Assembly: GCA_003513005.1 (NCBI GenBank)
Contig: DOTD01000032.1
Span: 4,847 to 68,846 of the forward strand
Direction of reading: 5' to 3'
Length of the DNA: 64,000 nucleotides
Source of the DNA: Desulfotomaculum sp.
Lineage (GTDB): Bacteria > Bacillota > Desulfotomaculia > Desulfotomaculales > Nap2-2B
The position numbers and the translations under genes are program-made. Below, piece after piece: positions 41,670 through 42,632 of the stretch. The notes beneath the pieces are model-generated. The model saw only the letters and a list, made by a program, of their open reading frames with translations, was not told the origin of the DNA and ran no database searches. Each line of letters opens with the position of its first letter. Positions within the stretch are counted from its first letter, which is position 1.

Positions 41670-42632
41670 TTATAGAATAATCATATTAAACAAATAACCT
41701 ACACAAATAATTGCCACAGCTACAATGCCGAAATATACTGCCAGCAGTTTTGGTTTCAGTACCTGCTTGAGGATTATAGCTTCCGGTAAGGACAGCGCCG
41801 TCACAGCCATCATGAAAGCAAGGGCTGTGCCCATTGCCATCCCGGTTCTGACCAGTTCCTTTACTACGGGGATCAGCCCGGCGGCATTTGAATACAAAGG
41901 AATGCCAATAACAACCGCCAACGGGACCGCCAATGGATTAGCCGGGCCGGCATACTGGGTCAGGAAACCGGCCGGGGCATAGCCATGCATGGCAGCTCCA
42001 ATACCTACACCGATTACGACCCAAAGCCACACTTTTGTAAATATCTGCTTTGTATATGCAATAGATTGATCAATCCGGTCTTTCCAGGGCATTTGGGGAT
42101 TATCCGTACCGCAGCCGCATTGTGAAGCGGTTATCTGATACACATATTCCTCCACAAGATGCTCAAGTTTCAGCCGGCCTAATATCGTGCCGCCAATTAT
42201 CGCTACGATTACCCCACTTGCAATATATATGAGGGCTATCTTCCAGCCGAACGTCAGCCAGAGCATACCCAGGGCAACCTCGTTAACCATCGGTGAAGAT
42301 ATTAAAAATGAAAACGTAACGCCAAGCGGGACCCCCGCTTCTACGAAGCCGATAAATATCGGCACCGCTGAACAGCTTCAGAAAGGGGTGACAATACCCA
42401 TCAGCGCTGCGATAATATTCCCGACAAATTCACGTTTATGTCCTAAAAGGTTCCTTGTTTTCTCGGGTGGGAAGAAACTCCTGATTATGGCTATGACGAA
42501 TATGATCAAGATCAGCATAAATAATATTTTTACTGTGTCGTAGAAGAAAAAATTAATAACAGAGCCAAAGTGAGATTCAGGAGATAACCCGATGAGGTTA
42601 TAAACCAGGTAATTTACAGCCTGCTGCCACAT
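41670..42632 (-). CDS. ArsP-like permease (COG0701/DUF318) containing an in-frame TGA (42378-42380)
   Basis: Track ORFs 42378-42632 and 41670-42365 are in the same frame (963 nt) and are separated only by the TGA. The junction reads GIVTPF-[TGA]-SCSAVPIFIGF, and the family motif is TPFCSCS. This is either a Sec codon or a nonsense mutation. Confidence 0.7.

Follow-up and report, generated by a model that had tools for sequence, protein, structure and literature searches.

The question raised by this locus is whether an in-frame UGA in the gene of a putative metal(loid) permease ends the protein or encodes selenocysteine (Sec). The gene lies on the minus strand of a 64,000-nucleotide stretch of DNA from Desulfotomaculum sp. 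(GenBank assembly GCA_003513005.1, contig DOTD01000032.1, positions 4,847 to 68,846), hereafter the window, whose own numbering is used throughout. It occupies 41670..42632 and comprises 321 codons including the TAA stop, that is, 320 residues with Sec proposed at residue 85. On the basis of comparative sequence analysis, we consider that the UGA at codon 85 is very probably a genuine and conserved Sec codon, giving Sec-Ser-Cys in place of Cys-Ser-Cys.

A permease frame divided by one UGA

In the minus-strand frame from 42632 to 41670 the sole internal stop is the TGA at 42380-42378, and the junction reads ...AALMGIVTPF-[TGA]-SCSAVPIFIGFVEAGVPLGV. Mechanical calling of open reading frames (ORFs) splits the gene into products of 84 aa (42378..42632) and 231 aa (41670..42365), while the ATG at 42632 has a GAGGG Shine-Dalgarno sequence 7 nt upstream. 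When the UGA is translated as Cys, the protein matches Pfam PF03773 (ArsP_1) with E = 2e-77 and 260.7 bits (cut-off 32.3) over profile positions 1-293 of 294, so homology is continuous across the TGA. The vicinal C-S-C motif, located in a membrane segment, here takes the form TPF-[UGA]-S-C-S; Cys85 and Cys87 are invariant in 48 Cys-containing homologs, and the UGA (42378..42380, minus strand) aligns with Cys85, the first Cys of the motif. As is usual for a bacterial selenoprotein, the UGA is aligned with Cys, and Sec and Cys forms both occur naturally. An earlier note on this DNA had read the two ORFs as one frame split only by the TGA, the product as a COG0701/PF03773-type permease and the UGA as Sec at the first Cys of a TPFCSCS motif; the first two claims proved correct, and the third gains support from the invariance of Cys85 and from the presence of TGA in 17 sequences.

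Public records do not reflect this continuity. The GenBank entry for the window's fragment is an 84-aa stub (KUK64630.1, "Permease") from the metagenome-assembled genome (MAG) Desulfotomaculum sp. 46_80, and UGA-form permeases in general are deposited as 84-aa "permease" stubs or as hypothetical proteins (e.g. KUK64630.1, Pmgp_01789). When the full-length forms of two isolates, with X at the Sec site, were sought in public records, stubs alone were present.

A second C-x-C motif lies in a poorly modelled central loop of the permease (residues about 170-176, QCGCGTD), relatives having QCGCG, QCDCG or GCGCA at this point, and in the permeases of Desulfotruncus alcoholivorax (locus L007 of those fetched for comparison) and L023 the loop is enlarged by an insertion of ~35 residues with several extra Cys. 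This Cys-rich region may be a cytoplasmic loop that collects metal(loid)s.

Conservation of the UGA and of the downstream frame

Searching with the N-terminal 84 residues returned about 43 clusters (90% identity level) of exactly 84 aa, 54-98% identical to the query, and all 18 of the 84-aa clusters that were aligned terminate in ...TPF. At the DNA level, one genome per species was scanned for T-P-F-TGA-x-C-S-A-V-P, a pattern that itself demands TGA. Fourteen of the 17 matches are permease frames of 317-354 codons with a single TGA at codon 85, and the remaining three are chance. Among the 14 are three cultured isolates, each sequenced independently (Pelotomaculum propionicicum MGP, P. terephthalicicum JT and Desulfotruncus alcoholivorax DSM 16058), and MAGs of Bacillota (several) and of Actinomycetota (one) are likewise among them; metagenomes add three TGA forms, bringing the total to 17 distinct DNA sequences, none of which contains a second stop or a frameshift.

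Relatives that encode Cys are 57-78% identical, the closest (72-78%) including that of Thermincola potens. In a neighbour-joining tree the Sec forms occupy at least three places (a main clade, a pair from Bacillota Ch109 and the Actinomycetota MAG) with Cys forms between them, and such interleaving is the usual picture for a genuine selenoprotein family. Among Sec forms, the median ratio of nonsynonymous to synonymous substitution rates (dN/dS) is 0.090 over codons 1-84 and 0.097 from codon 86 to the end. The 235 codons after the UGA are thus evidently under the same purifying selection as the 84 before it, and the downstream part is therefore, by this measure, translated and functional. Nor is the codon reassigned genome-wide, since TGA acts as an ordinary stop for 12 of the window's 41 long ORFs.

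These results bear on the simplest alternative, namely that the permease has been inactivated by a nonsense mutation and that its downstream frame is decaying. Other genes of the same island do show decay (a 41-aa in-frame deletion in ArsM, and truncation of Acr3 in the nearest relatives, L001-L004), and GenBank annotates the 84-aa stub KUK64630.1 alone. Against this, the same TGA recurs across a divergence that reaches about 54% identity, in the 17 distinct sequences and in some 43 clusters; TAA or TAG never stands in its place (a point limited by the genome scan, whose pattern demanded TGA); and the lack of any second stop or frameshift, together with the downstream dN/dS of 0.097, is not what a decaying frame would show. 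The earlier note had itself named a nonsense mutation, with TGT or TGC in close relatives, as the counter-case. Cys forms do exist, yet the TGA is conserved to the same depth, and the argument from a nonsense mutation does not apply to a gene in which purifying selection acts on an intact downstream frame and whose RNA structure (see below) is kept only in the TGA forms. We regard a pseudogene as scarcely credible. An error of sequencing or assembly, which might be suspected because the window matches a MAG (Desulfotomaculum sp. 46_80), is a practically negligible alternative given that the identical codon is found in many independent assemblies, three isolate genomes among them.

The Ser codon that follows the Sec codon (42375-42377 in the window) is AGC or AGT in 16 of the 17 Sec forms, the Actinomycetota form having ACT (Thr), while TCN is used in 12 of 13 Cys forms, and the sole Cys form with AGT (L038) adjoins the Sec clade in the tree. 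This bias may reflect the UGA-A context, an alternative lower stem, or simply ancestry.

Stem-loops downstream of the UGA

Two hairpins that the earlier note had described downstream of the UGA were both recovered on the minus strand, at 42363-42348 and 42340-42324. Counting the U of UGA as position 0, hairpin 1 (42343..42368), the proposed core of a selenocysteine insertion sequence (SECIS), has a lower stem GCGG/UCGU (12-15/34-37), a 1x1 mismatch and a 6-bp upper stem GCCGAU/AUCGGC (17-22/27-32), the upper stem and loop being the part at 42363-42348. Its loop, AUUU in the window, lies 23-26 nt from the U of the UGA. Hairpin 2 (42324..42340, AAGCGGG-GGU-CCCGCUU) consists of a 7-bp G+C-rich stem (40-46/50-56) with a GGU loop (47-49). 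In bacterial SECIS elements the loop lies about 16-37 nt from the UGA (about 22-25 nt in Escherichia coli fdhF), and hairpin 1 is a selected stem-loop with its apical loop within this range.

Evidence for selection on the RNA comes from synonymous sites. For the main Sec clade, synonymous differences amount to a fraction of 0.13 over codons +6 to +11 and 0.17 over codons +12 to +17, against 0.45 gene-wide, and the hairpin 2 codons GAA GCG GGG GTC CCG CTT are nearly frozen in Sec forms. Taken together, the 12 codons from +6 to +17 give 0.152 in the Sec forms against a median of 0.465, ranking first of 287 segments for synonymous constraint, whereas the same segment in Cys forms is ordinary (0.589, rank 77 of 249). 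Individual codons follow this pattern: CCG (+6) and ATC (+9) are present in 17/17 Sec forms and variable in Cys forms, and GCG (+14) is found in 14/17 Sec forms but in no Cys form. An antisense ORF on the plus strand (42187-42543) was considered as a source of the constraint and rejected, as the constraint spans only about 36 nt of that ORF.

Pairing shows the same division. When the two-hairpin structure is imposed on the alignment, 93.8% of cells are paired in the 17 Sec forms versus 75% in 12 Cys forms; separately, the values are 94.7% versus 85.8% for hairpin 1 and 92.4% versus 59.5% for hairpin 2, whose central pair is formed in 14/17 Sec forms and 0/12 Cys forms. The core pairs 21:30 and 22:29 of hairpin 1 are paired in every Sec form (17/17) versus 7/12 Cys forms, and its pair 18:33, made up of two third-codon positions, covaries (GC, AU, GU, CG). 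RNAalifold recovers the upper stem of hairpin 1 in all 17 Sec forms, and offers as an alternative an extended lower stem starting about 5 nt past the UGA, which is also the fold predicted for the Ch109 sequences that are without hairpin 2. The apical stem-loop of hairpin 1 is accordingly the universal element as predicted across Sec forms, with its loop at the bacterial SECIS distance; hairpin 2 is an extra feature specific to the main Sec clade, and may serve as an accessory SECIS element or a ribosome pause.

The RNA element also bears on the possibility that translation truly terminates, leaving an 84-aa membrane peptide and perhaps some 231 aa made from an internal start, i.e. a split permease without its first Cys. 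A GTG does lie 12 nt past the TGA (42365), and gene callers report downstream fragments of 200-231 aa; T. potens, moreover, has a PF03773 gene naturally divided into 159 + 182 aa. Yet the internal GTG is without a Shine-Dalgarno sequence, and the called starts disagree even among near-identical loci (200 and 208 aa in L001-L004, 231 aa by mechanical calling in the window). Termination would place the break inside the most conserved motif with loss of an invariant ligand, and would leave unexplained why the break always falls at the Cys codon and is always TGA, as well as why a hairpin at SECIS distance is selected in the UGA forms only. We consider a split permease very improbable. The T. potens gene just mentioned (L035, CP002028, 9073-10100), a second PF03773 gene in that species, is made up of two adjacent ORFs of half size, which is another kind of split than the UGA case.

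Other in-frame UGAs and the probable decoding of selenocysteine

Two further in-frame TGAs aligned with Cys occur within 8 kb of the permease, in HgcA and in a small Cys-rich protein, and at both sites a hairpin loop lies 24-27 nt past the UGA. With three Cys-aligned UGAs of like geometry in 8 kb, no other reading is nearly as simple as Sec decoding.

The gene of HgcA (37995-39095, plus strand; NF040863, 444 bits) is called mechanically from TTG 38115, but its frame reaches upstream through a TGA at 38040-38042 to an ATG at 37995. The N-terminus reads MGSLAVEEDTLRETC-U-GPDPQEE (RETC-U-GPDP), so that TCUGP stands here against the published PCUGP. Its hairpin has a UUUC loop with no G, closed by a G-C pair. 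HgcB follows (39085-39369, plus strand) and ends in CC. An N-terminal PCUGP extension containing Sec has been described for most HgcA proteins, all species concerned having the Sec machinery (bioRxiv 10.1101/2022.07.06.499078).

The small protein (45802-46137, plus strand; about 111 aa), encoded just downstream of ArsM, starts at GTG 45802 behind an AAGGAGG Shine-Dalgarno sequence and has its TGA at 45862-45864; it reads VKEVTVTVFGTDAFMPASSC-U-GPSTGDACCGS... (...MPASSC-U-GPSTGDACCGS...). Its full-length homologs of 111 aa, e.g. SPSYN_02933 of Sporotomaculum syntrophicum, have Cys at the UGA position, while most database entries are 76-aa stubs. More distant homologs close to Sec-permeases in three other lineages (L012, about 2400-2692; L013, about 6270-5969 on the minus strand; L005, about 2620-2925) likewise show a TGA in frame within this Cys-rich loop. 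The protein has no Pfam or NCBIfam match and apparently represents an undescribed selenoprotein family; it may be thioredoxin-like in fold (PDB matches with E = 0.06-0.2). Its identification as ArsD was not supported (hhalign probability 2.8%, with an approximate ArsD query).

Several observations weigh against Sec at codon 85. Neither the 64-kb window nor the fetched loci yielded selA, selB, selC or selD, so that the Sec competence of the genome is presumptive, with indirect backing from the CUGP of HgcA and the Cys-aligned UGA of the small protein; ARAGORN detected neither a tRNA in the window nor a tRNA-Sec in any of 21 loci, and a scan of eight large window ORFs against NCBIfam gave no SelA, SelB or SelD (six are a radical-SAM protein, a P-type ATPase, an RND pump, a flavorubredoxin-type reductase, Dcm/Vsr and a GGDEF protein, and two are without a match). 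A conserved G (GU) marks the apical loop of the E. coli and Moorella SECIS elements, and the AUUU loop of the window and eight relatives is without the G of E. coli-type models, the other 8 of the 17 Sec forms having GUUU or GUUC. The GGU loop of hairpin 2 lies about 45 nt from the UGA, beyond the usual 16-37 nt, and the Ch109 Sec forms are without this hairpin. Covariation in the strict sense is limited, with changes on both sides at one pair, and hairpin 1 is partly dictated by the conserved peptide, as its 85.8% pairing in Cys forms shows. Folding of the single sequence is unexceptional relative to shuffles (z = -1.66), so the case for an RNA element rests on the comparative data. For the proposed substrate, a caution is that the permease falls under the NCBIfam cut-offs of both characterised sister families, SO_0444 and SaoE. 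At gathering thresholds, Rfam returned the glmS ribozyme alone for the window, with no SECIS match.

Some of these points could favour read-through that is independent of SelB, in which a near-cognate tRNA (Trp or Cys) would decode the UGA at low efficiency and the hairpins would slow the ribosome or hinder release factor 2. Structured RNA past a stop is able to promote read-through, the window's loop is without the canonical G, and no Sec machinery is seen in the window. But the UGA sits at an invariant Cys ligand, and it is by Cys/UGA interchange, combined with a loop at +23 to +26, that bacterial Sec is typically recognised; the same window holds an HgcA with the published CUGP and a third Cys-aligned UGA, and the sister family SO_0444 is accepted and annotated as USC selenoproteins. 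We judge such read-through improbable. Under the reading that we prefer, SelB carrying Sec-tRNA(Sec) would bind hairpin 1 and insert Sec at codon 85.

Operon and genomic context

The permease belongs to a minus-strand operon whose order is ArsR, Acr3, thioredoxin-like protein, permease. The first gene encodes an ArsR-family repressor (43998..44402; PF01022 HTH_5), the second an Acr3 arsenite efflux transporter (42946..44031; TIGR00832, 443 bits), and the third a thioredoxin-like protein of the MTH895/ArsE type (42643..42888; TIGR00412) with the CxxC motif GCANC, located 10 nt upstream of the permease. Both the gene order and the TIGR00832 and TIGR00412 matches agree with the arsR-acr3-thioredoxin-permease operon that had been proposed earlier. 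Directly upstream of the permease, the thioredoxin-like gene is kept in the main Sec clade and in the closest Cys forms, and ArsR and Acr3 accompany the Sec form at most loci, among them those of Ch109 and Actinomycetota, which are distant (Acr3 at 12 of the 17 distinct Sec-form sequences, and additionally at L016 and L022, near-duplicates of L001 and L020).

Downstream of the permease, and likewise on the minus strand, are genes for a low-complexity protein of 240 aa with a weak C-terminal thioredoxin-like domain (41489-40767) and for a CcdA/DsbD-type transmembrane thiol-electron transporter (40767-40111). The pair is also present at L008 and L013 and may constitute a module for the supply of reductant.

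Much of this neighbourhood varies between strains. Downstream of the permease, the window segment 38115-41489 holds the genes of CcdA and of the 240-aa thioredoxin-like protein, together with hgcAB and the gene of a DUF1295-like membrane protein. The relatives L001-L004 (96% identical) have a nitroreductase gene where this block stands, and in the flanks fetched for L008 and L013 hgcAB was not seen, which suggests that the hgcAB block was inserted or lost in particular strains. Mercury methylation was rejected as a general partner of the Sec-permease, as hgcAB occurs in this window only among 30+ loci. The ArsM gene (45035-45700, plus strand; 221 aa) carries a clean in-frame deletion of 41 residues in the S-adenosylmethionine-methyltransferase core, judged against the 268-aa protein of the nearest relative (L001, 7395-8201), and the window's ArsM is probably inactive. 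Acr3, conversely, is intact in the window (361 aa), while in L001-L004 only its C-terminal 166 aa are left. Strains have lost differing parts of the ars island, with the Sec-permease intact in all of them.

Elsewhere in the window, a glmS ribozyme (9135-9294, plus strand; 95 bits) precedes the glmS gene, and an RND permease (18438-21527, minus strand; 863 bits) and a heavy-metal P-type ATPase (27528-29654, plus strand; 550 bits) are ordinary features. Scans for promoters and terminators gave counts at background.

A possible role for selenocysteine in the permease

An AlphaFold model of a Cys homolog 77% identical to the permease (pLDDT 78.6, pTM 0.78) places C-S-C (85-87) where two short helices (68-81 and 86-98) are separated by a break. 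Its counterpart in the protein's second half is the invariant PLYSNAAG (246-253), which lies between helices 236-244 and 251-263. Paired helix breaks of this kind suggest the arrangement typical of a mid-transporter substrate site, and in the model U-S-C opposite the PLYSNAAG break would form a soft-ligand binding site for the transported species. No solved homolog was found by sequence, and Foldseek against PDB gave nothing significant, the best match being NaS1, of DASS type (E = 0.19, TM 0.42). An analogy with elevator-type folds was consequently dropped.

As for the substrate, gene context points most probably to a trivalent arsenical outside the reach of Acr3, such as methylarsenite, because ArsR and Acr3 travel with the permease at a majority of Sec loci, as does ArsM in this lineage. 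Given that Acr3 already exports arsenite, a trivalent organoarsenical, the class of substrate known for ArsP, is the likeliest cargo, and a thiophilic metal is possible. With its low pKa and high nucleophilicity, a selenol would allow capture of the substrate at lower concentration and faster ligand exchange than a thiol, and at the first ligand position it would bind soft metal(loid)s more tightly. The CxxC thioredoxin-like neighbour, and here also the CcdA module, would keep the Se-S pair reduced.

Three proteins within 8 kb have proposed Sec in soft-metal-binding motifs, namely the permease, HgcA (C-U-G-P) and the small protein (C-U-G-P...CC). A more speculative proposal, which we hold to be rather unlikely, is that these proteins belong to a selenium-dependent island for the handling of organometal(loid)s. 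The small selenoprotein might then act as a selenol chaperone that carries As(III) or MAs(III) (or Hg) from the methyltransferase to U-S-C, the handover would take place by Se-S ligand exchange, and the thioredoxin-like protein and CcdA would recycle Se-S bonds. Equally speculative is a SECIS variant in these genes of Peptococcaceae type, which would combine a U-rich tetraloop without G and a second hairpin.

Implications

No earlier example of a Sec transporter in a bona fide arsenic-resistance operon emerged from the searchable literature, so that this one would be the first; within the ArsP superfamily, Sec at C-S-C would be known from just two subfamilies, this being the second. If the reading is true, the detoxification of arsenic (and possibly of mercury) in these syntrophic anaerobes hinges on the supply of selenium. 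The existence of Sec and Cys forms that are 72-78% identical would amount to a natural experiment on the ligand pair, with affinity, exchange kinetics or redox gating as the properties that might differ. Surveys of arsenic genes in anaerobic digesters, oil reservoirs and sediments would under-count UGA permeases, deposited as they are as stubs, and a family model with a Sec exception would mend the annotation. The value of following up this system lies in its arsenic context, its near-isogenic Sec and Cys forms, its two-hairpin and often G-less element, and the two selenoprotein genes proposed nearby.

Comparison with known systems

We found no link between such ArsP-type permeases and selenocysteine in the literature searched. 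The principle itself is not new, and on this point the earlier note, which treated the case as essentially unprecedented, requires correction, since Sec at the same motif is already documented in the SO_0444 family (NF033936). In that family CSC is occasionally USC, as in WP_014809615.1 of Desulfomonile tiedjei and close homologs (bioRxiv 10.1101/2022.07.06.499078), and it is listed as UxC and as annotated in GenBank, with no other entry from the superfamily among 119 families and subfamilies (PMC13188914). The two cases share the superfamily (TCDB ArsP / PF03773), the replacement by Sec of the first Cys of the same tripeptide (USC), the minority status of Sec forms among Cys forms, and a presumed role in the efflux of thiophilic metal(loid)s. 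They differ in that the window permease scores 106 bits against the SO_0444 cut-off of 300 and belongs to another subfamily, and in that it is found in Gram-positive, Peptococcaceae-like anaerobes, whereas the Sec form of SO_0444 is found in Desulfomonile. The genomic context is ArsR, Acr3 and a thioredoxin-like protein (arsenic) here but Cu/Zn for the SO_0444 family, and the window permease, unlike its annotated counterpart, was missed by the annotation pipeline and is recorded as 84-aa stubs only.

Among NCBIfam models the best score of the window permease is with SaoE (NF040736) from SAO, the locus termed selenocysteine-assisted organometallic, at 127 bits, which is far under the cut-off of 325. 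The two proteins share the CSC motif, and both have many selenoproteins with CU/CC motifs encoded around them. SaoE, however, never contains Sec (bioRxiv 10.1101/2022.07.06.499078), and the genes of SaoP, SaoA, SaoB and SaoX are not present here, the neighbours being ars and hgc genes instead.

The vicinal Cys pair of Campylobacter jejuni ArsP is reportedly needed for the efflux of organoarsenicals. The window permease resembles this protein in its family (PF03773 is named after ArsP), in its ars operon and in the vicinal Cys-x-Cys of a membrane segment, and the adjacent ArsM gene fits a methylarsenite substrate. C. jejuni ArsP is described as an exporter of MAs(III) and Rox(III) (PMC6514093, PMC12607644). 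ArsP has Cys where the window permease has Sec, and the two are likened by family, motif and context.

HgcA, with its PCUGP motif, offers a parallel of another kind, as another case in which a Sec that replaces Cys in a soft-metal-binding motif was overlooked and the protein was wrongly annotated as truncated. Its gene lies 4 kb from the permease, and its hairpin loop lies at the same distance from the UGA, although HgcA is a corrinoid methyltransferase of an unrelated family and no transporter. Set against these systems, the permease is, judged by its sequence, a distinct ars-operon-linked subfamily of the ArsP superfamily, which stands outside SO_0444 though it follows the same USC principle.

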